Virus record (IMG/VR): IMGVR_UViG_3300033512_000218 | Coordinates: 1-64,000 of that record | Strand: one strand, 5' to 3' | Length of the DNA: 64,000 nucleotides | From: a virus | Shown: positions 11,392-58,290 of the stretch, piece by piece | Layout of the letters: each line of letters starts with the position of its first letter | How positions within the stretch are numbered: the stretch's first letter is position 1 | Made by a program: the position numbers and the translations under genes | The notes under the pieces: model-generated | What the model saw: the letters and a program-made list of their open reading frames with translations, nothing else | What the model was told of the DNA's origin: nothing | The model's database searches: none

Positions 11392-11784
11392 ATGAAAACA
11401 ACAATTATTATAGAAAAACCACATTCATTTGTAGATTTAATAACCAATTCATCCACTGAATTATTTATTGTTAATACTGATAAGGAAATGAAAGTCGTTG
11501 AAGAACTATTAAATGAAGTACAATCAAAATATCCAAATGATTATGGTTATAGAATATATGTTAATAAGGTAGAAGAAGATGATTTAATGAATATATTTGA
11601 CTATTATTATGAAAAGGATAAATGTATTGAATATTTGACCATGTTAGGTTATAAAATAATTAGTCCAGATGATAATACCAATAATTATATTAAATTATCA
11701 ATTGAACGAGGGTATTTAAATGATAATACTAAAAAATTTATTGAGGAAACATTTAATATTGTTTATTATTCATCCGAAGCATAA
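11392..11784 (+). CDS. hypothetical phage protein
   Basis: HSFVDLITNSSTELF motif, familiar from large-phage hypotheticals. Confidence 0.7.
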   Translation: MKTTIIIEKPHSFVDLITNSSTELFIVNTDKEMKVVEELLNEVQSKYPNDYGYRIYVNKVEEDDLMNIFDYYYEKDKCIEYLTMLGYKIISPDDNTNNYIKLSIERGYLNDNTKKFIEETFNIVYYSSEA

Positions 11785-11810
11785 AATAATAATTACTAAA
11801 AATAAAATAT

Positions 11811-12035
11811 ATGAAACTAAATGAATTTTTATATAACTTAAATAAAATGGTTGTACAAAACCCAGAAATATTAAATTATGATGTTATTTATAATAAAGAT
11901 GATGGAAAAAATGTTTTTAATAAAATTAATTTCAATCCAATATTATGTCATTTAGATGTTTATGAATTTTATCCTGATTATGAGATTAATGAAAAGGAAT
12001 ATAAAATGAAAATAAACTCAATATGTATAAATTAA
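11811..12035 (+). CDS. hypothetical protein
   Basis: 74-aa ORF. Confidence 0.6.
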   Translation: MKLNEFLYNLNKMVVQNPEILNYDVIYNKDDGKNVFNKINFNPILCHLDVYEFYPDYEINEKEYKMKINSICIN

Positions 12036-12046
12036 AAAAATAAAAT

Positions 12047-12448
12047 ATGAAACTAATTGAACAAATAAATTTAGATTTTTTAGAAGCCCGTAAATCTAAA
12101 AATAACGATATTTCTTTATTATTATCAACGTTAAAAGGTGAAATAGAAAGAAAAAAAACTAAAACAAATGAGGATAATGATATAATTACAATTATCAAAA
12201 AAATGATTGATAATTGTATAGTAACCAATACAAAACAAAGTATAGATGAATCAAAATACCTACAAAAATATTTACCTACGTTATTAACTGAATCAGAAAT
12301 AGAAACAATTTTATTTATATTTATTAATGAAGGATTAAATACTTTACCACTGTTAATGAGAAAATTTCAGGAACAATATAAAGGTAAAGCAGATAATAAA
12401 ATGGTAACAAATATAATAAATAAATTATTAAATGAAAATAGATTTTAA
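12047..12448 (+). CDS. GatB/YqeY domain protein
   Basis: MKLIEQINLDFLEARKSK...LQKYLP.LLTESEI...YKGKADNKMV. Confidence 0.85.
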   Translation: MKLIEQINLDFLEARKSKNNDISLLLSTLKGEIERKKTKTNEDNDIITIIKKMIDNCIVTNTKQSIDESKYLQKYLPTLLTESEIETILFIFINEGLNTLPLLMRKFQEQYKGKADNKMVTNIINKLLNENRF

Positions 12449-50465: not shown

Positions 50466-50798
50466 ATGAAAAATAAACTAAAAATTGAAATAAGATTAAT
50501 TTGGTATTTTATTGAATCAATGTATACAAAATTATTAAGACTGTTTCATATTAATAAAGATAAATCAATTATTCCTAAATGAATGTATTGCTATGTAATG
50601 GATGAAGAACTAAATAAACAAAAACCTACTTCAGAAGAGGGATATTATATAAAAACATGCAAATATTATAGAAGTACTCCAAAAACAAAAGGAATAGCAT
50701 GTACATATACAGGTTATTATGGATTTGATTTTGGTCTTTATGACCAATGCAAAATTTGTGGAGAAAATGATGAAATAGATGAAAGAGATTTAATATAA
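50466..50798 (+). pseudogene. Cys-rich hypothetical gene with in-frame TGA at 50580-50582
   Basis: ATG 50466 reads in frame to DKSIIPK*MYCY. Confidence 0.5.
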
Positions 50799-50814: not shown

Positions 50815-51024
50815 ATGATAGTTGATATTAAATGCCATAAATGTAAAAAAGAATTTGAAGCAGAATGGAATGTGAGAGGAAAATGTCCTAATTGTGAAAA
50901 CAAATATGATTGGACATGGGATGGTGAGTTGTGGAGTGATTTTGAAACTTGTTTTCCAATATTTGAAAGTGAAACGGAAGGTGTTAAAAACTCTTTTTTA
51001 CTTGTAATAGATTGGGATTTTTAA
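50815..51024 (+). CDS. small zinc-ribbon protein
   Basis: CHKC and CPNC. Confidence 0.65.
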   Translation: MIVDIKCHKCKKEFEAEWNVRGKCPNCENKYDWTWDGELWSDFETCFPIFESETEGVKNSFLLVIDWDF

Positions 51025-51026
51025 AT

Positions 51027-51092
51027 TTTAACATTTATTAAGATAATTAAATTTGTATTTTTACTTTATTTATATTATCTTTATAATATAAT
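51027..51092 (+). promoter_or_regulatory. early promoter repeat upstream of cassette array
   Basis: consensus with TATCTTTA variant. Confidence 0.7.
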
Positions 51093-51210
51093 TTAAAATG
51101 AATATTAACCAACAACTGATATTAGGACAGAAACAATGGCTTATATTTGTTGTAAGCAAATAATCACTAAATTGTATGTTATGTACTTTTATCATAATAC
51201 ATTAATCAAA

Positions 51211-51447
51211 ATGGAAAATATAAAAATGAGTTTTAAAGATGCCCCTGTCGGTGCAAGATTTAAGTATCCAAATGATACAAGCGGAAATATTTGGGTTAAA
51301 ATTAATTCATATCCACAAAGTAGATTTGAAAGCGGATTAGGATTGATTTGTAAATGGGAAGGAAATATAAAAAGTTATCAATCTTTTTGCTCGTTTAGTG
51401 ATGAAAATAATGGAATTTCATTTGAAACTGAAATCGAGTTATTATAG
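51211..51447 (+). CDS. cassette 1 hypothetical protein
   Basis: MENIKMSFKDAPVGARF...; stop just before site 1. Confidence 0.65.
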   Translation: MENIKMSFKDAPVGARFKYPNDTSGNIWVKINSYPQSRFESGLGLICKWEGNIKSYQSFCSFSDENNGISFETEIELL

Positions 51448-51448
51448 T

Positions 51449-51581
51449 TGCTAACGGTTGCAAATAAACACAGTAAAAGATATGAAAGAACAAATTTTAG
51501 AAATAGCAGAAAAACTTAGATTAGAACTAATAACTGAATACGAAGCACAAAACCTTTTATTTGGTTTATTTAGTGTTATAC
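51449..51581. repeat. attC-like site 1
   Basis: TGCTAAC..aaataaac..agtaaaag / cttttatt..gtttattt..GTTATAC. Confidence 0.7.
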
Positions 51582-51691
51582 AACGAAGTGAACAGTTGGT
51601 TGCTTTTGTAAAATGGTTAGAAGCTAATTCAGACCACTCAATTGATAGAGGTTGGATAGAAGAATATATTGAAGCAACCAATTGTGTATAA
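51482..51691 (+). CDS. cassette 2 hypothetical protein (starts in hairpin loop)
   Basis: MKEQILEIAEK...; stop TAA lies inside GTATAAC. Confidence 0.7.
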   Translation: MKEQILEIAEKLRLELITEYEAQNLLFGLFSVIQRSEQLVAFVKWLEANSDHSIDRGWIEEYIEATNCV

Positions 51692-51807
51692 CGGCTGAGT
51701 ATTGGCGTTGTTGCCATCATAAACGATTATTAATAACACTAAATTATAAAATTATGACAAAAGTTTCAGAAAACCACGAAGGCAATAACGCTAATACTTT
51801 GTTAGCC
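51686..51807. repeat. attC-like site 2
   Basis: GTATAAC ggctg agtattggcgttgttgcc / ggcaataacgctaatact tt GTTAGCC (16/18 plus 2 G.T). Confidence 0.85.
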
Positions 51808-51978
51808 ACAGTTATTCCTCAATCAAAAGAAGAGTTGTTAGAATGTATTCAAAATTTGATGGGTGTATTTGACACACCAGTTTCAAGAAGAGCAATAAAG
51901 GGTGAATTTGCCGATGAAGTTCGTAAGATAGGTCGTCAAATTTTGGAAAGTAATGGTAAATCAATGTACGATATATAA
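51754..51978 (+). CDS. cassette 3 hypothetical protein (starts in hairpin loop)
   Basis: MTKVSENHEGNNANTLLATVIP... Confidence 0.7.
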   Translation: MTKVSENHEGNNANTLLATVIPQSKEELLECIQNLMGVFDTPVSRRAIKGEFADEVRKIGRQILESNGKSMYDI

Positions 51979-51982
51979 TTGT

Positions 51983-52074
51983 GGCTAACGTATCGTGTAT
52001 GAGCAGTGGCACTTGTACACACTTTCAAATTAGCTACAACGATTATGTGCCATTGCTTATACACGGTGTTAGTG
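51983..52074. repeat. attC-like site 3
   Basis: GGCTAAC gtat cgtgtatgagcagtggcac / gtgccattgcttatacacg gt GTTAGTG. Confidence 0.88.
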
Positions 52075-52109
52075 ACAGTACTTTTTTTAATAATCTAATA
52101 ATCAATTAT

Positions 52110-52664
52110 ATGAAAGCTGAAAAACAAATAATTTACGATGACGAAAATGCAGCCAGATTCGTTGAAAATATCAAAGGTTGGGTTGATATTAATAATCAAT
52201 TTTATGGGAATAATTCAGATTCTGAACATATGGCACGTTGGTCAAGTTGCACACATAAAAAATGTAAATGCGGAAAGCTAATAACTAAAGGATGGACGAA
52301 ATGCGATGAATGTAGAACTAACTCCGAAATTGAAAGATATAACCAACTTACATTTAAAGAATATAATGGTGATATAGTTTATTCACATTATGCTGACCGA
52401 TACTTTATGGATTCTGATGAAATAGAAGATTATTGCTCTGAGGAAGAAATTGAGACTAAAGATTTGAGGCTTGTATTTTGCGAACCAAATAAATTTAGCC
52501 AAATATATAGTGACTATTGGGAAGATGTATTGCAAGAAGATTCAGAAGGCGAATTACCTACGAAGTTACAAGAGGCTTTAGATAATTTAAATAAAATCAT
52601 TTCTGAAATGCCTCCAGCGAGTTATTGCCCAAGTAAAACACGAACTGAATATCGTAGCGTGTAG
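52110..52664 (+). CDS. cassette 4 hypothetical Cys-containing phage protein
   Basis: MKAEKQIIYDDENAA...EHMARWSSCTHKKCKCG...CDEC. Confidence 0.75.
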   Translation: MKAEKQIIYDDENAARFVENIKGWVDINNQFYGNNSDSEHMARWSSCTHKKCKCGKLITKGWTKCDECRTNSEIERYNQLTFKEYNGDIVYSHYADRYFMDSDEIEDYCSEEEIETKDLRLVFCEPNKFSQIYSDYWEDVLQEDSEGELPTKLQEALDNLNKIISEMPPASYCPSKTRTEYRSV

Positions 52665-52670
52665 TATTGG

Positions 52671-52765
52671 CACTAACGGTTGGGTGTATGAAACGTAACC
52701 TAACTACAAACTTTAGTATTAACCACTGAACTATAATAGGTTATGTTTTATACACCTTGTTATAT
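52671..52765. repeat. attC-like site 4
   Basis: CACTAAC ggttg ggtgtatgaaacgtaaccta / taggttatgttttatacacc tt GTTATAT. Confidence 0.88.
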
Positions 52766-52862
52766 GCAGTGCGGACTTATAGTGGAAATGTTGATACGAG
52801 AGATGAACCTTTTTGTTTTATTTTTTGTGCGGTGGGAAAGTAATTAACTTAATAACTAAAAT

Positions 52863-53435
52863 ATGAAATACGAAATAATATACGCTGATCCAGCTTGGGA
52901 ATACAATACAAAGGAATGTTTGGCTAAAACATCAATACTTAATGGAGAATTGAATACCCATTATAGCACAATGACATTGAAAGACTTAAAAGCATTAGAC
53001 GTGCAAAGTATTTCAAATAAAAATTGTATGCTGTTTTTGTGGGTTGTAAGCCCGATGTTAAAAGAAGGTATTGAAGTGATGGAAGCGTGGGGCTTTAAAT
53101 ATGCCACAATAGCTTTTATATGGCACAAGCAAAGAACAAACCCTGGACATTATACAATGAGTGAATGTGAAATTTGCTTGGTAGGGAAGCGTGGCACAAT
53201 ACCAACTCCAAGAGGAGCAAGGAATGTAAGGCAATTTTTATCTGAAATGCGAGGCAAACATTCTGCTAAACCTAATGAAATAAGAACGAGAATTGATACA
53301 ATGTTTCCAACTCAAAATAAAGTAGAATTATTTGCAAGGCAGAATGTTTTAGGATGGGATGCTTGGGGTAACGAATGCGAAAACTCTATAACTATTGGAG
53401 GGGAGGAAAAAAAAATTAAAACAAATTGCGTATAA
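52863..53435 (+). CDS. cassette 5: MT-A70 family adenine methyltransferase
   Basis: IIYADPAW, HYSTM, LFLW, WGFKY, HSAKP, ELFAR, GWDAWGNE; stop inside GTATAAC. Confidence 0.92.
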   Translation: MKYEIIYADPAWEYNTKECLAKTSILNGELNTHYSTMTLKDLKALDVQSISNKNCMLFLWVVSPMLKEGIEVMEAWGFKYATIAFIWHKQRTNPGHYTMSECEICLVGKRGTIPTPRGARNVRQFLSEMRGKHSAKPNEIRTRIDTMFPTQNKVELFARQNVLGWDAWGNECENSITIGGEEKKIKTNCV

Positions 53436-53500
53436 CGAATGGTGCTATGAGCAGGTTTGTGTTGCGCCTGCGGCAAACTTGCTTATAGCACGTGTTACTG
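53430..53500. repeat. attC-like site 5
   Basis: GTATAAC gaatg gtgctatgagcaggtttg / caaacttgcttatagcac gt GTTACTG. Confidence 0.88.
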
Positions 53501-53568
53501 GCTGGCTCGGTTAATTAACCACTAAACTCAAATCGAAGCATTAAACAAAAGAATTTAAAAAAAGAGGG

Positions 53569-54330
53569 ATGGAAAAAAATAAAATATATAACGAAAATTG
53601 CCTTGAAACAATGGCTAAAATGCCTGATAAGTTTGTGGACTTAACGGTTACTTCACCGCCTTATAATATGCGAACACGTATAAGAAACGGACAATATACC
53701 ACAAGAGAGAAAAGCGAACATTTTAGCAAAAAGTATAAGTATTTTGACGATGCTTTACCAATAAATGATTTTTACGAATTTCATAGCAGCGTATTGACTG
53801 AACTATTGAGAGTATCAAAAATTGTTTGCTACAACTTTCAAATAGTGACAGGAAGCAAAGAAGCGTTTTTTAAAATCATTGGCGACTTTAACAAGGATAT
53901 TAAGGATATTATCATTTGGGATAAAGGAAGCGGACAGCCTGCAATGCACGGAATGGTTTTAAATAGCTGCTATGAAATGGTATTGATATTAGAAGATGAT
54001 AAAAGAGCAGGGAGAGCAATACAAAATGCTAAATTCAAAAGAGGTGAAATGAATAACATTTTGAGAATCGGCAGAGGCAAAAAAGTATCTGATGTTCACG
54101 GTGCAATTTTTCCAGAACAACTACCATTTGATTTGATAAACGCTTTTTCAGAAAAAGAAGCATTGATTTACGACCCTTTTATGGGAAGTGGAACTACTGG
54201 ATTAGTAGCAAGTAAATTAGGTAGAAACTATATTGGAAGTGAAATAACAGAAGAATATTGTCAAATAGCTGAAAATCGTATTAAAGAGTGCGGTGGGCTT
54301 TTTTTGAACTCTTTTGAACCGAAATGTTAA
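53569..54330 (+). CDS. cassette 6: N4-cytosine/N6-adenine DNA methyltransferase (beta class)
   Basis: VTSPPYN, H.A.FP, YDPFMGSGTT, GRNYIGSEI. Confidence 0.92.
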   Translation: MEKNKIYNENCLETMAKMPDKFVDLTVTSPPYNMRTRIRNGQYTTREKSEHFSKKYKYFDDALPINDFYEFHSSVLTELLRVSKIVCYNFQIVTGSKEAFFKIIGDFNKDIKDIIIWDKGSGQPAMHGMVLNSCYEMVLILEDDKRAGRAIQNAKFKRGEMNNILRIGRGKKVSDVHGAIFPEQLPFDLINAFSEKEALIYDPFMGSGTTGLVASKLGRNYIGSEITEEYCQIAENRIKECGGLFLNSFEPKC

Positions 54331-54355
54331 ATCGCAGCACAAATGTAGAGCTTGC

Positions 54356-54450
54356 CAGTAACGTTGGTGCTATGAGCAGGTTTGCCTTGCAGAAATGTTC
54401 AAATTTAGCACTAATGTTATTGGCAAACTTGCTTATAGCACGTGTTATGT
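54356..54450. repeat. attC-like site 6
   Basis: CAGTAAC gttg gtgctatgagcaggtttgcc / ggcaaacttgcttatagcac gt GTTATGT; arms same as site 5. Confidence 0.88.
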
Positions 54451-54483
54451 GCCGTTTTTATTCACGAATTTAAAATTAGTAAG

Positions 54484-54996
54484 ATGAAAAAATATGATGT
54501 AATTTATGCCGACCCTGCTTGGCGATATGACTTTAGCAAAAGTAATAGCAGGGAAATTGAAAACCAATACCCAACAATGACCATAGATGAAATATGTGGA
54601 TTAAAAGTACCTGCAAAAGATAACGCTGTGCTTTATATGTGGGCAACTGCACCAAAGCTATTGGAAGCAATAAAAGTATTAAATGCGTGGGGCTTTGAAT
54701 ATAAAACACAAGCAGTTTGGGATAAGGAAATTATCGGAATGGGTTATTGGTTCAGAGGACAACACGAAATATTAATAGTTGCTACAAAGGGTAAATTTTC
54801 ACCACCCGAACAACCATTAAGAATAAGTAGTGTGATTAAGGAAAGGAGAACCAAGCATAGCAAGAAACCGATTTATGTAAGAGATATGATTGAAAAATGG
54901 TTTCCCGATTCTGAACGATTAGAAATGTTTGCCCGAACAAGCGGTGAAAATTGGGATGTTTGGGGAAATGAAGTTGAGAGTAGTGTCGCTCTTTAA
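54484..54996 (+). CDS. cassette 7: MT-A70 family adenine methyltransferase
   Basis: VIYADPAW, YPTM, LYMWAT, WGFEYKT, HSKKP, EMFAR, WGNE. Confidence 0.92.
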   Translation: MKKYDVIYADPAWRYDFSKSNSREIENQYPTMTIDEICGLKVPAKDNAVLYMWATAPKLLEAIKVLNAWGFEYKTQAVWDKEIIGMGYWFRGQHEILIVATKGKFSPPEQPLRISSVIKERRTKHSKKPIYVRDMIEKWFPDSERLEMFARTSGENWDVWGNEVESSVAL

Positions 54997-55002
54997 AATG
55001 GC

Positions 55003-55096
55003 ACATAACGGTTGCGTGTATATTTCAGGTTTGCTTGTACGAACTTTGAATTATGCACAAATGCTGATGCAAACTTGAATATACACGTTGTTAGTA
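55003..55096. repeat. attC-like site 7
   Basis: ACATAAC ggttg cgtgtatatttcaggtttgc / gcaaacttgaatatacacg tt GTTAGTA. Confidence 0.85.
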
Positions 55097-55167
55097 ACAG
55101 TAGCATACGACAATGTTAATTTGAAACGCTACACTTTTTATTTTAAATTTTTAAGGAGGGATTTTTT

Positions 55168-56148
55168 ATGAATATTTTGAGTTTATTTGATGGTATAAGT
55201 TGTGGGCAAATAGCGTTGGAACGTGCTAATATTAAAGTTGATAAATATTACGCAAGTGAAATTGATGCCAATGCTATTAAAGTTACGAAACACAACTACC
55301 CAAATACAATACATATTGGAAGTGTGAATGATATTGATTTTAGTAAATACCAAGATATTGATATTTTAATTGGTGGTAGCCCCTGCCAAGACTTATCACG
55401 TTGTAATTTAGAAAATAAGGGATTAGAAGGAGAACGATCTAAATTATTTTTTAAATACATAGAATCGTTAAAAATTACTAAGCCTAAATATTATGTATTT
55501 GAAAATGTTGGAAGTATGACCAATGAGAATATGGAAACCATAAGTGAATATTTCGGACATAAACCAATTTGTATAAACTCAAATTTAGTTTCTCCACAAA
55601 GCAGAGAAAGATATTATTGGACAAATATACCAAACGTAATACCACCAATAGATAAAAACATTTTGGTTAAGAATATAATTGAAAAAACCGTACCCGAAAA
55701 GTATTACTTAAAAATGGATTATGCTTATGTACCAAAGGAAACAAAACATAATTCAAAAAGCGGATTACAATTTGTTTGTGGTATTATTAGCAAAAAGAAA
55801 TGGCTTGATGATGGGAAAGGAAATTCACGTAATTTTTCACAAGGAAATAGAGTTTATTCGATAAATGGAAAATCTTGTACTATAAATGCAAATGCTGGAG
55901 GATTAGGTGGTAAAAGTGGATTATATTATTTAGAAGATGGAAAGGAATTTAGCAAAAGCAATATAAGAAGATTAACACCATTAGAAACAGAACGATTACA
56001 AACAATACCTGACAACTATACCGATATAATAAACGAAACAAATAGGTACAAATGTATTGGCAATGGTTGGACGGTAGATGTAATTGCACATATTCTTTCT
56101 TTTATAAATGGTTTTGAAAAAACCACAGATCGTGGGCAAAAAATTTAA
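55168..56148 (+). CDS. cassette 8: DNA cytosine-C5 methyltransferase
   Basis: SLFDGISCG, GGSPCQ, FENV, QSRERYYW, GNGW. Confidence 0.93.
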   Translation: MNILSLFDGISCGQIALERANIKVDKYYASEIDANAIKVTKHNYPNTIHIGSVNDIDFSKYQDIDILIGGSPCQDLSRCNLENKGLEGERSKLFFKYIESLKITKPKYYVFENVGSMTNENMETISEYFGHKPICINSNLVSPQSRERYYWTNIPNVIPPIDKNILVKNIIEKTVPEKYYLKMDYAYVPKETKHNSKSGLQFVCGIISKKKWLDDGKGNSRNFSQGNRVYSINGKSCTINANAGGLGGKSGLYYLEDGKEFSKSNIRRLTPLETERLQTIPDNYTDIINETNRYKCIGNGWTVDVIAHILSFINGFEKTTDRGQKI

Positions 56149-56196
56149 AATAAAAAATTATTATGCACGAACCTTGCTACGAAGAAAGGCTATTGT

Positions 56197-56241
56197 TACT
56201 AACTATTATATATAAACAAGTGTATTTAATTTATTGATTAT
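56197..56241 (-). other. array-terminal site (candidate attI equivalent)
   Basis: TAACTATTATATATAAA-N10-TAAtTTATTGAtTAT, repeated with identical spacing at 57841-57882. Confidence 0.6.
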
Positions 56242-56306
56242 GAATACAAAAGACAAAACAAATCTTGAAATTTTCGAAGATATTTCTTGAGTTGAAAATT
56301 ATAAAT

Positions 56307-56372
56307 TTTAACATTTATTAACACAAATTAATTTTGATTTAGTTAATAAATGTTTTATCTTTGTGATATAAT
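56307..56372 (+). promoter_or_regulatory. conserved early promoter repeat
   Basis: same consensus. Confidence 0.85.
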
Positions 56373-56388
56373 TTAAAAAATTAAACAA

Positions 56389-56820
56389 ATGAAACATTTT
56401 ATTACATCATTAAGAGCAACCTCAAAAGAAGAAACATTAAATCGTTTTAAAGAAACAAATGATTATAATGAAAATAAAGTATATTCTGCTAATCTCAATT
56501 GGTATACACAGGATTGGGATATATACGAATATGATTTAAAAGAAGGTGATTATATTGCATTTGAATATGAATATGAAATAGGTGACCCTGAAATAATAGT
56601 TGATAATATTTCATTTGTATATGAAGATAGAGTAATCGTACACTTTTTATATGGTTATAAATCTGAAACTTGTACTATTTTAAAAAAAGATATTTTAGCA
56701 ATAGGAAATAAACTAAATGGAACAACAAAATTATTAGGTTGGACTGGCTTATTTGATATTGTAAATGAAACAGATTTTTTAATTAAAAATATAGAATATG
56801 AAACAAAATCTAATAGTTAA
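56389..56820 (+). CDS. hypothetical protein
   Basis: ORF after promoter repeat. Confidence 0.65.
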   Translation: MKHFITSLRATSKEETLNRFKETNDYNENKVYSANLNWYTQDWDIYEYDLKEGDYIAFEYEYEIGDPEIIVDNISFVYEDRVIVHFLYGYKSETCTILKKDILAIGNKLNGTTKLLGWTGLFDIVNETDFLIKNIEYETKSNS

Positions 56821-57010
56821 AAAAGGACAAATAATTAAAACCGAGAGAAATGAAATTTTCAAAGTTAAATTGGAAAATGATAATATTATTACCTGTACAA
56901 TATCAGGTAAAATGAGATTAAATAAAATTCATTTAATTGAAGGTGATTTCGTAACGGTTGAATTATCTCCTTATGATATGACACGAGGTAGAATTAGTTG
57001 GAAAGGATAA
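56798..57010 (+). CDS. infA: translation initiation factor IF-1
   Basis: FKVKLEN...ISGKMR.N.I.L..GD.V.VELSPYD.TRGRI. Confidence 0.93.
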   Translation: MKQNLIVKKGQIIKTERNEIFKVKLENDNIITCTISGKMRLNKIHLIEGDFVTVELSPYDMTRGRISWKG

Positions 57011-57067
57011 ATTCTATAATATTAAATTTATTATCTATTTTATTATTGGTTTTATAAGATTATATGT

Positions 57068-57390
57068 TTATTTTATTAAAGTTGATACTGTTTCTTCTTC
57101 TTCTTCAGTAAAATATGATAATAAATATTTAATTAATTCAATTGATTTTTTGGCGTATTTTTATTTAGTTTTCTTTTTAAATTATCTAATCTATCTGCTA
57201 TTTTAATAATTATTAATTTATTTCTTGTATCAGAATCGAGTTGTGGTAATATTTGAGTTAAATGATGTAAAGGTTCATTATCAATATTATCAGATGTTTT
57301 GGTTTCACTACTTATATATCTGATTATTTTTTTAGCTTTATCATATATATTAAGTTTATCGATATCTCCTCCTTGTTCTATATAATCATG
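57068..57390 (-). pseudogene. truncated, frameshifted RelA/SpoT-type HD hydrolase
   Basis: manual translation HDYIEQG...IIIKIADRLDNL; no start codon; 5' part missing where the solo cassette begins. Confidence 0.7.
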
Positions 57391-57396
57391 AAATGT

Positions 57397-57489
57397 TTAT
57401 AGCAGTTTGCAATATGAAACGGTTGCATTATAAAACGTTTCAATTTTAGTAATAGCTTGACAGCAACAGTTTTATATTGCTTGTTAGGT
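57397..57489. repeat. attC-like site of solo cassette (left core AGC instead of AAC)
   Basis: TTATAGC agttt gcaatatgaaacggttgc / gcaacagttttatattgc tt GTTAGGT. Confidence 0.78.
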
Positions 57490-57504
57490 ATAATAATTTT
57501 TATT

Positions 57505-57843
57505 ATGGGAATGTACACACAATTTATTATCGAATGCAAGTTAAAAGAAGAAACTCCTTACAAAATTATCGAATGTTTAGAAGATATGATAAACGACATT
57601 GATAATGATTTATTTACTTATAATCGAAATCCTTTAAACAATTATTGTGAAAGCAATAAATATTTTAAATCATTTAAAGATTTAGTGTTAAAAGCACATG
57701 GGGATATAAAAAACTATCAGACTGATATTGATAGGTTTACTGATTTTATAAAACCTTATGTGGAAATAGGGTTTTTAGAAAATAATTCTTTTGCTAAATC
57801 ATTATACGAAGGATATGATGAGTGGACGTATTATTGTACCTAA
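57505..57843 (+). CDS. solo cassette hypothetical protein
   Basis: MGMYTQFII...IKNY..DI..F.DFIKPY; bracketed by GTTAGGTATAATAA / TTATTGTACCTAAC; stop inside the AAC core. Confidence 0.75.
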   Translation: MGMYTQFIIECKLKEETPYKIIECLEDMINDIDNDLFTYNRNPLNNYCESNKYFKSFKDLVLKAHGDIKNYQTDIDRFTDFIKPYVEIGFLENNSFAKSLYEGYDEWTYYCT

Positions 57844-57882
57844 CTATTATATATAAAAATCTCAACCTAAGTTATTGACTAT
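57838..57882 (-). other. second array-terminal site (candidate attI equivalent)
   Basis: 17/17 and 13/15 identity to the two boxes at 56200-56241. Confidence 0.6.
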
Positions 57883-57897
57883 ATTTAAAATTATATT

Positions 57898-57963
57898 TTT
57901 AACATTTATTAACATAATTAAATTTGTATTTTTGATTTATTTAATCTATCTTTGTAATATAAT
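57898..57963 (+). promoter_or_regulatory. conserved early promoter repeat
   Basis: same consensus. Confidence 0.85.
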
Positions 57964-57978
57964 TTAAAAAATAATAAA

Positions 57979-58290
57979 ATGAAAGATTTATCAAATTTAT
58001 CAATTAGTCAATTGGAAAAATATAAGGATGATTATATTGCCTTATACGTTGGTGATTTTTATAAACCTTTGGATTATAAAAAAACAATTCAATATATTAA
58101 TCAATTATTGGATTATAAACAAATTAAATTAAAAAATAAAATTCAGAAAAAAATATATACTCAAAATGAAGTATTTGGATTATTATCAAAAATATTACAG
58201 GACTATGACACTGTACTACAAGATAATAATATTAATACATTATTGATACAGTTTGATAAAAGGGAATGGTTTAATAAACACAAAAAATAA
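57979..58290 (+). CDS. hypothetical protein
   Basis: ORF after promoter. Confidence 0.6.
   Translation: MKDLSNLSISQLEKYKDDYIALYVGDFYKPLDYKKTIQYINQLLDYKQIKLKNKIQKKIYTQNEVFGLLSKILQDYDTVLQDNNINTLLIQFDKREWFNKHKK

Follow-up and report, generated by a model that had tools for sequence, protein, structure and literature searches.

Integrons are recognised by an integrase of the IntI clade that carries an additional domain, by a primary attI-type site next to the integrase gene, and by attC sites, imperfect palindromes between inverse RYYYAAC and GTTRRRY boxes, each of which follows its gene and recombines through the strand complementary to that gene. CALINs, clusters in which two or more attC-like sites occur away from any integrase, have been reported in virulent phages, some of them with methyltransferase cassettes (PMC9892861). 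Small reading frames within the sites are also on record: the attI1 helper frames ORF-11, ORF-17 and ORF-18 cross the crossover point, attC sites can hold short ORFs, and occasional fused cassettes as well as N-terminal fusions of aac(6')-Ib have been described (PMC8876359). Integron biology nevertheless treats attC as non-coding punctuation after genes; at the locus described here, the site precedes the gene.

The locus lies in the first 64 kb (64,000 nt, the window) of virus record IMGVR_UViG_3300033512_000218, a 139.6-kb sequence of ~20% G+C, estimated to be ~60% complete, from a large Bacteroidota-type phage. Two of its sites, sites 1 and 2, are probably recombination hairpins of a phage-borne, integron-like system that is the mirror image of classical integrons and whose long hairpins hold the starts of genes. 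In the full-text literature searched, the coverage of which was incomplete, no account was found of a phage-encoded Xer-like cassette system, of mirror polarity, or of sites that regularly encode cassette N-termini.

The cassette array and its two long hairpins

Seven sites of one design lie between 51.45 and 55.1 kb of the window, a region with a G+C content of ~33%, above that of the record; the array as a whole runs from 51.45 to 56.2 kb (Table 1). Each site consists of nnnTAAC, a spacer of 4-5 nt, an arm of 18-21 nt, a variable loop, the inverse arm, 1-2 nt and GTTAnnn. Genes of the array encode a phrog_11053 protein, two MT-A70 proteins, one N6_N4 and one C5 methylase, and small proteins without a family. 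The loops measure 74 nt in site 1, ~60 nt in site 2 and 14-39 nt in the remaining array sites, as expected from an earlier note on this DNA, which had singled out sites 1 and 2 for the longest loops.

In a fold test, site 2 and sites A-E fell far below the energies of shuffled sequences, the + strand being ~4 kcal/mol more stable than the - strand (for site 2, -18.8 kcal/mol on the + strand, z = -3.45, with 0 of 200 shuffles as good, and -14.3 on the - strand), and homologous site 2-type hairpins in two related phage loci (L002 and L064) show compensatory changes in their arms. Site 1, whose 18-nt arms are 83% complementary and 74 nt apart, is by itself no more stable than its shuffles (-6.4 kcal/mol on the + strand, with z = +0.9); it is counted as a site despite this because copies of ~95% identity head other cassettes in the arrays of related phages (L049, L050 and L059-L063), in L050 directly beside a terminal site and a recombinase. 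An Rfam scan of the hairpins returned no family, just two sub-threshold microRNA look-alikes for hairpins A and E.

Table 1. Features of the cassette arrays, in window positions unless marked as genome positions.
Feature	Position	Strand	Details
Repeated intergenic promoter-like motif	51023-51100	+	Reads into the array; recurs at ~56305, ~57893 and genome 73677, each before a gene block
Hairpin site 1	51449-51584	+	TAAC 51452-51455; arms 51462-51479 and 51554-51571; GTTA 51575-51578; loop holds ATG 51482
ORF1	51482-51691	+	69 aa; residues 1-31 from loop and 3' arm, Val32 from the box GTT, then body
Hairpin site 2	51683-51812	+	TAAC 51689-51692; 19-bp stem; GTTA 51801-51804; loop of ~60 nt holds ATG 51754
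ORF2	51754-51978	+	74 aa; residues 1-20 from hairpin and box; 21-70 conserved three-helix domain
Hairpin sites A-E, span	51980-55100	+	Each 5' of a cassette gene; genes assigned by family searches
Hairpin site A (AAC to GTT)	51987-52068	+	Before phrog_11053 protein gene
Hairpin site B (AAC to GTT)	52675-52759	+	Before MT-A70 gene
Hairpin site C (AAC to GTT)	53434-53494	+	Before N6_N4 methylase gene
Hairpin site D (AAC to GTT)	54360-54444	+	Before MT-A70 gene
Hairpin site E (AAC to GTT)	55007-55090	+	Before C5 methylase gene
Complete mobile unit	55006-56203	+	TAAC, hairpin E, C5 methylase gene, terminal TAAC
Terminal, attI-like site	56200-56239	+	TAAC, then TATTATATATA, then a second AT-rich block; no hairpin after
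Recombinase N-terminus remnant	56240-56290	+	16 codons; resembles the L033 and L037 recombinase N-termini
Solo cassette	57409-57849	+	Hairpin AAC 57418, GTT 57483; gene 57506-57843; closing TAAC followed by the terminal sequence seen after 56200

Reading of the sequence confirmed that ATG 51482, 3 nt past the 5' arm, lies in the loop of site 1 and ATG 51754 in that of site 2, with both frames running through arm and core, as the earlier note had proposed; the GTT of site 1 is a Val codon. The working core of site 2 is placed at GTTA 51801 and not at the GTT Val codon at 51811, since all 10 bases of 51801-51810 match the far end of the cassette (51980-51989) in reverse complement; the ORF2 frame crosses both. 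The stop codon of ORF1, TAA 51689-51691, sits within the next TAAC box, and the stop of an upstream gene is often the TAA of TAAC itself (51689-51692, 53433-53436 and many relatives; the stop offset is -1 in many surveyed units), so that the 5' box is also dual-use.

Further elements surround the long array. The 5' arm of the solo site (window 57409-57440) is a tandem duplication of a 16-nt unit that gives two pairing registers with the single 3' arm, and an additional array is found at 73.9-74.85 kb of the same record. The arrays sit between copies of an intergenic module made up of a conserved AT-rich block, ~40 nt, a TATAAT-like block and an A-run, copies of which stand before the long array (window 51023-51100), after it (56300-56380), after the solo cassette (57890-57975) and before the third array (genome 73677-73750); this module likely represents a phage promoter family. 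At 50580, TGA is directly followed by ATG, for which genetic code 4 was considered. Among contigs of public runs, 5-12% of the words of 51000-58000 are present, as single cassettes or hairpins.

Polarity of the cassettes and exchange at GTTA

The enzyme that would act on these sites is found in related phages. In L002, a cassette with the ORF1 body ends in TAAC-TATTATATATA, and ~40 nt further on lies an intact tyrosine recombinase of 265 aa on the same strand. Relatives of this recombinase (51-100% identity) occur in 44 phage contigs, some of them 250-290 kb long, and nearly all 44 (about 40 loci) carry TAAC-TATTATATATA ~50 nt before the recombinase start. Upstream of the recombinase, on the same strand, are arrays of up to 19 TAAC-hairpin-GTTA sites, the last body of which in every case directly adjoins the terminal site, without an intervening hairpin (about 40 loci); the 208 non-redundant sites fall into size classes of ~44, 75, 84, 110-125 and 185-250 nt, and the median cassette body is ~250 nt. 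The L002 recombinase scored 159 bits against the integron integrase model TIGR02249 (cut-off 265), matching it in two pieces with the middle of the model skipped; its best family was a XerA-type model (194 bits against a cut-off of 220), it stayed under the cut-offs of all curated families, and its best solved relative is an archaeal XerC-like protein. Judged by these matches, the recombinase is Xer-like and lacks the IntI-specific segment. Isolated phages hold no close relative of it, the best being Polaribacter and Cellulophaga phage integrases at ~37% identity. In L049, an IS605 OrfB / Cas12f-like TnpB gene (11690-12213) is located ~2 kb downstream of the recombinase.

In the record itself the terminal junction recurs at 57842 and at genome 74847, and an exact-pattern scan of viral contigs for the terminal site gave no match once the record was left out. 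A second recombinase remnant lies at genome 74883, and no recombinase gene is present anywhere in the 139.6 kb, so nothing can move here now. The arrays of the window would thus be fossils of a phage-borne integron-like system, unless the enzyme is supplied in trans.

Complementarity of the boxes before and after a gene cannot settle which hairpin belongs to which gene, because both polarities predict it, and a comparison of bodies comprised just 25 homologous pairs, too few alone to decide. Homology between arrays is more telling: 36 blocks begin at the TAAC of a hairpin, span the hairpin and extend 16-124 nt into the downstream body, and three further blocks span a whole unit from TAAC to TAAC, which brings those that cross GTTA to 39, whereas homology enters a hairpin from the upstream body in only 3 blocks, over at most 52 nt. 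One hairpin-plus-body is common to L001, L002 and L003 at 100% identity, with differing neighbours. A 2119-nt lake-water contig (X2 record 15) matches exactly the complete unit of Table 1, at 97.5%, both of its flanks being unlike the window, and four public contigs from two studies diverge right after 55009. Under strand-symmetric scoring over 230 phage sites, the gene strand holds 441 G.T pairs versus 98 A.C pairs, an excess that could reflect folding of mRNA rather than of DNA, and G.T pairs are conserved at fixed stem positions. These observations suggest that the gene-sense strand is the one that folds, and they support a hairpin that precedes its gene and in most cases travels along with it. 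Reverse polarity had also been the view of the earlier note, and it is sustained by independent lines, namely the terminal site and recombinase downstream, the homology blocks and the lake-water unit. The dual use of the DNA, which the note had offered as independent support, does not serve as such: leaders are swapped among bodies and natural contigs break at GTTA, so dual use alone does not prove polarity.

The mobile unit would then run from the C of TAAC through spacer, 5' arm, loop, 3' arm, GTTA and body to a box complementary to GTTA that ends in TAA. The folded gene-sense strand would be the substrate of a small tyrosine recombinase of the Xer-like type that, we infer, exchanges strands in the 5' TAAC box, and units would be inserted at the TAAC-TATTATATATA terminal site just upstream of the recombinase gene.

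Under classical polarity, crossover would instead take place mainly between the G and TT of the 3' box, the hairpin would belong to the upstream gene, and chimeric proteins would be routine. Several observations at GTTA agree with this. The alignment of ORF1 with its 48 database homologues splits leader from body exactly at Val32, whose GTT codon is the only invariant column; the 31-residue leader (~90% identity) stands before ~15 unrelated bodies, among which small Cys-rich peptides are frequent, and the ORF1 body is found behind five other leaders, making six different hairpins in all. The leader type of ORF2, seen in L002 as well as in L064, heads three other bodies; the DNA homology of L064 to the site 2-type hairpin ends at GTTA. 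Some 8-10 homology blocks start at GTTA; at L033 8578, for example, a body headed elsewhere by an 84-nt hairpin sits behind a 44-nt one, and homology begins exactly at GTTA. Contigs in two runs carry the MT-A70 body from 54443/54444 onward behind other hairpins, a break at the GTTA of site D with loose ends just before 54443, and the joint 53488>54444 of one contig, from hairpin C to 54444, removes exactly the N6_N4 body together with the left part and loop of hairpin D. Genes also end tightly against or within the next TAAC box. Shared leaders fit either polarity, however, as a generic hairpin family would explain the sharing, and classical polarity is unlikely on other grounds: at ~40 loci the terminal site and recombinase lie on the side on which no hairpin follows the last body; homology runs across GTTA far more often than it enters over the 5' TAAC from the upstream side; one unit has a TAAC at either end; 38 leader-family members are all in frame, which would be unexpected under free shuffling of bodies from two box frames; and the G.T bias puts folding on the gene strand, opposite to bacterial relatives of classical polarity.

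Within the mirror-image system, then, N-termini are exchanged as well, since the joint between leader and body always falls at GTTA. The earlier note had held that the hairpin must travel with its gene, which is too strong given that heads and bodies are re-paired at this box, and had seen the swapping of N-termini as merely an alternative outcome, yet swaps are found across homologues; they emerged when the check that it suggested, a search of protein databases for the arm-encoded peptides, was run. A few head families serve many unrelated bodies, and heads and bodies are occasionally re-paired exactly at GTTA, leaving the unit usually, although not absolutely, stable. Re-pairing may reflect rare recombination on the less favoured strand, which would cut the 3' box, homologous exchange in shared arms, or repeated cassette genesis from generic heads. 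For comparison, the top strands of classical attC sites recombine, at lower frequency (PMC9892861).

Other rearrangements are visible in the related arrays. Two adjacent cassettes are fused in frame into one 134-aa ORF in L061 (8698-9102) and L062 (6066-6470), a deletion having taken the final part of the first body along with the left-hand half of the hairpin that follows it; the tail of the second leader persists in the protein. In L054, a 308-kb phage contig, a homologue of the ORF2 body is contained in a longer ORF (2310-2680) with remnants of a site-2-type 3' arm and GTTA box but no 5' arm, and looks like a fossil cassette absorbed into the upstream gene. It is conceivable, albeit rather doubtful, that heads and start-less bodies are separately exchangeable modules joined at a fixed GTTA, that site-specific recombination builds in-frame chimeric small proteins from them, and that shared heads act as functional tags for localisation or packaging. 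Were this so, the exchange of heads and bodies would be a prokaryotic, recombinase-driven analogue of exon shuffling.

Probable gene starts inside the hairpins

Because two small genes begin inside hairpins, the recombination site would supply the start codon and the first 15-31 codons, and a hairpin that lies 5' of the gene within the same unit is able to hold a translation start if it is long. An A-rich initiation region and the ATG would lie in the unpaired loop, where translation, we infer, begins, and the ribosome would read through the 3' arm and GTTA into the body. In a family of 39 hairpins (~31 unique) picked solely by a DNA motif in the 3' arm, the GTT frame is open for at least 20 codons upstream (20-28) in all 39, as against 0 and 1 of 39 for the other two frames; 37 members have an ATG in this frame, for the most part at -63, and in 38 the frame continues 30-220 codons past GTT into unrelated bodies. 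Of the 95 hairpins that exceed 100 nt and have a defined body, 53 contain an ATG from which the reading frame extends over at least 80% of that body, whereas such an ORF start is held by 0 of 96 hairpins of 100 nt or less. In-hairpin starts thus appear common among the long hairpins of related phages.

Coding and pairing leave their marks on the same DNA. The second codon positions of the loop are the most conserved (entropy 0.60 versus 1.07 and 1.23). In an 18-member leader-bearing family, 98.8% of cells pair, compared with 28-45% when the partner is slid, and seven pairs show compensatory changes, a level that 0 of 500 shuffles reached, although the 3' arm is coding throughout. Since the arms covary while the 3' arm codes and the loop carries coding signatures, the hairpin DNA is truly dual-use, as the earlier note had claimed; where the two demands conflict, pairing prevails, with amino acids changed and the pair retained.

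The bodies and leaders differ in predicted structure. ORF2 has 26 database homologues, and its conserved domain is widespread in phages; the body also occurs without any hairpin in high-G+C phages and with many other N-termini. AlphaFold models ORF2 as a three-helix bundle that starts at residue 21-25, with a pLDDT of ~90 for residues 21-70 and below 50 for the hairpin-encoded residues 1-14, which are therefore predicted to be disordered, and a Foldseek comparison of this model with the PDB gave nothing below E = 0.9. The model of ORF1 is all-helical, with one helix spanning the joint between leader and body. The leader may be mostly a tolerated N-terminal extension, predicted to be disordered in ORF2 and helical in ORF1. 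Pfam and PHROGs searches of ORF0, ORF1 and ORF2 found no family. The site 1 leader, which has several L/I-x-E motifs, was considered as a T4-type capsid-targeting leader, a candidate dropped as other leader families are without these motifs.

The ATGs in the loops could also be unused, translation starting either at a near-cognate codon (TTG or GTG) that immediately precedes GTTA or at an ATG that directly follows GTT, in which case the leaders would be untranslated and gene callers would over-extend. Relatives of ORF1 do have an ATG directly after GTT (+3), the ORF2 leader is, as noted, predicted to be disordered, and in the ORF2-type frame TTA is invariably preceded by a TTG or GTG codon, this last being a consequence of the box context. 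The window, conversely, has ATA at +3 with a matching change in the far box, and the pairing of the boxes being kept while the post-GTT ATG was lost points to the loop ATG as the start of ORF1. A single frame open over 20-28 codons in every member of the motif-chosen family, nearly always with an in-frame ATG, and the codon periodicity of variability in the loop likewise argue against unused starts, and many bodies comprise only 27-40 codons, lack an ATG themselves and would make implausibly small proteins without the leader. In ORF2, the stretch from the box to the conserved domain contains no in-frame ATG, and diverged homologues (69-80% identity) retain the leader frame. The earlier note had named homologues that consistently start past the GTT core as evidence that would overturn its view; no retrieved homologue of ORF1 or ORF2 starts downstream of the core. 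Unused loop ATGs are accordingly improbable, slightly more so than classical polarity.

The untranslated stretch between GTTA and the ATG of the gene (window 52760-52836, with ~75 nt, and 53495-53537) is conserved with the hairpin and joined to other genes in public contigs, with breaks at 52816 and 52836 in the first case and at 53537 in the second. It thus seems that heads without an ATG in the loop include a 5' untranslated leader instead.

That the hairpins are instead RNA elements (terminators, stabilisers or processing sites) or repeated extragenic palindromes, with the cassette order due to phage mosaicism, is very improbable, for even if the G.T pairs of the gene strand would be G.U pairs in mRNA and this record is without a recombinase, close linkage of the sites with a tyrosine recombinase and a conserved terminal site is seen in 44 phage loci as well as many loci of Flavobacterium, the boxes at the two ends of a gene are complementary and covary, breakpoints fall at boxes with nucleotide precision, and Rfam offers no match.

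Comparison with integrons and Bacteroidota arrays

Like integron cassettes, the phage cassettes form mostly promoterless single-gene arrays with imperfect hairpins between inverse AAC and GTT boxes, the box before a gene is complementary to the one after it, one strand folds better than the other, and a non-hairpin primary site adjoins the recombinase gene, although its likeness to attI is one of anatomy only. Inverse boxes of the attC type around an imperfect palindrome are present in the seven sites of the window and in more than 200 sites of its relatives, and with a 16-codon stub in place of an integrase the window falls under the definition of a CALIN. The differences concern the enzyme and the orientation. 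The 265-aa Xer-like recombinase has no IntI-specific insertion, so that the L002 enzyme is not an IntI-clade integrase with the additional domain, and the record itself holds no recombinase. Genes do not precede their site, nor is the putative recombining strand complementary to them: the phage genes lie on the folding strand with the hairpin 5' of each, and the recombinase is located downstream of the array and is co-directional with it. In attC sites, extrahelical bases on one arm direct strand choice; the bulged bases of phage sites showed no arm bias (78 versus 71 on the two arms), and G.T pairs at fixed stem positions are conserved instead. The long phage hairpins hold the start codon and N-terminus of the gene. 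Taken as a class of their own, defined by TAAC-hairpin-GTTA heads that precede their genes, a TATTATATATA terminal site and a 265-aa recombinase that follows in the same orientation, the related phage loci show all three features and the window all but an intact recombinase.

The small ORFs of integrons offer the closest parallel to the in-loop starts, in that they begin inside a recombination site, run in frame over the crossover and aid a cassette without its own initiation region. Those ORFs, however, are short coupling helper peptides or accidental fusions after loss of an attC, whereas the peptide encoded by the phage site regularly forms the N-terminus of the cassette product and belongs to families conserved over dozens of cassettes. 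XerCD integrates folded single-stranded CTX phage DNA, and thus provides a further case of a Xer-type tyrosine recombinase acting on a hairpin of single-stranded DNA, although there a single site serves the whole phage genome and no array of gene cassettes is involved.

A nearer relative is found in chromosomal arrays of Flavobacterium and other Bacteroidota (L091, L106, L128, L136 and others), which share a recombinase of 43-62% identity, TAAC-hairpin-GTTA sites of ~120 nt and complementary cassette ends. In these, by contrast, the array lies downstream of the recombinase and each gene precedes its hairpin, in the classical polarity, and the bias of G.T versus A.C pairs is reversed (71 versus 141); in the one locus read, no gene starts inside a hairpin. 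The arrays of Flavobacterium terrisoli (L091 7788-16816) and ~25 other Bacteroidota loci lie downstream of homologous recombinases that are extended at the N-terminus (that of L091 has 347 aa), and such chromosomal integron-like arrays would escape IntI-based detection.

In the phage system, one site would be at once a recombination substrate, a probable mRNA stem-loop, a translation start and N-terminal coding sequence, which makes the system a natural test of the sequence freedom of a folded recombination site and shows how promoterless, start-less fragments may become expressible on capture. It also points to a large reservoir of very small phage proteins and orphan methyltransferases, which are likely to act in counter-defence; their cassettes appear to pass as whole units among phages of freshwater and wastewater. 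The mirror relation of these arrays to those of Flavobacterium, with homologous recombinases and opposite order of gene and hairpin, would provide a handle on how strand choice is encoded.
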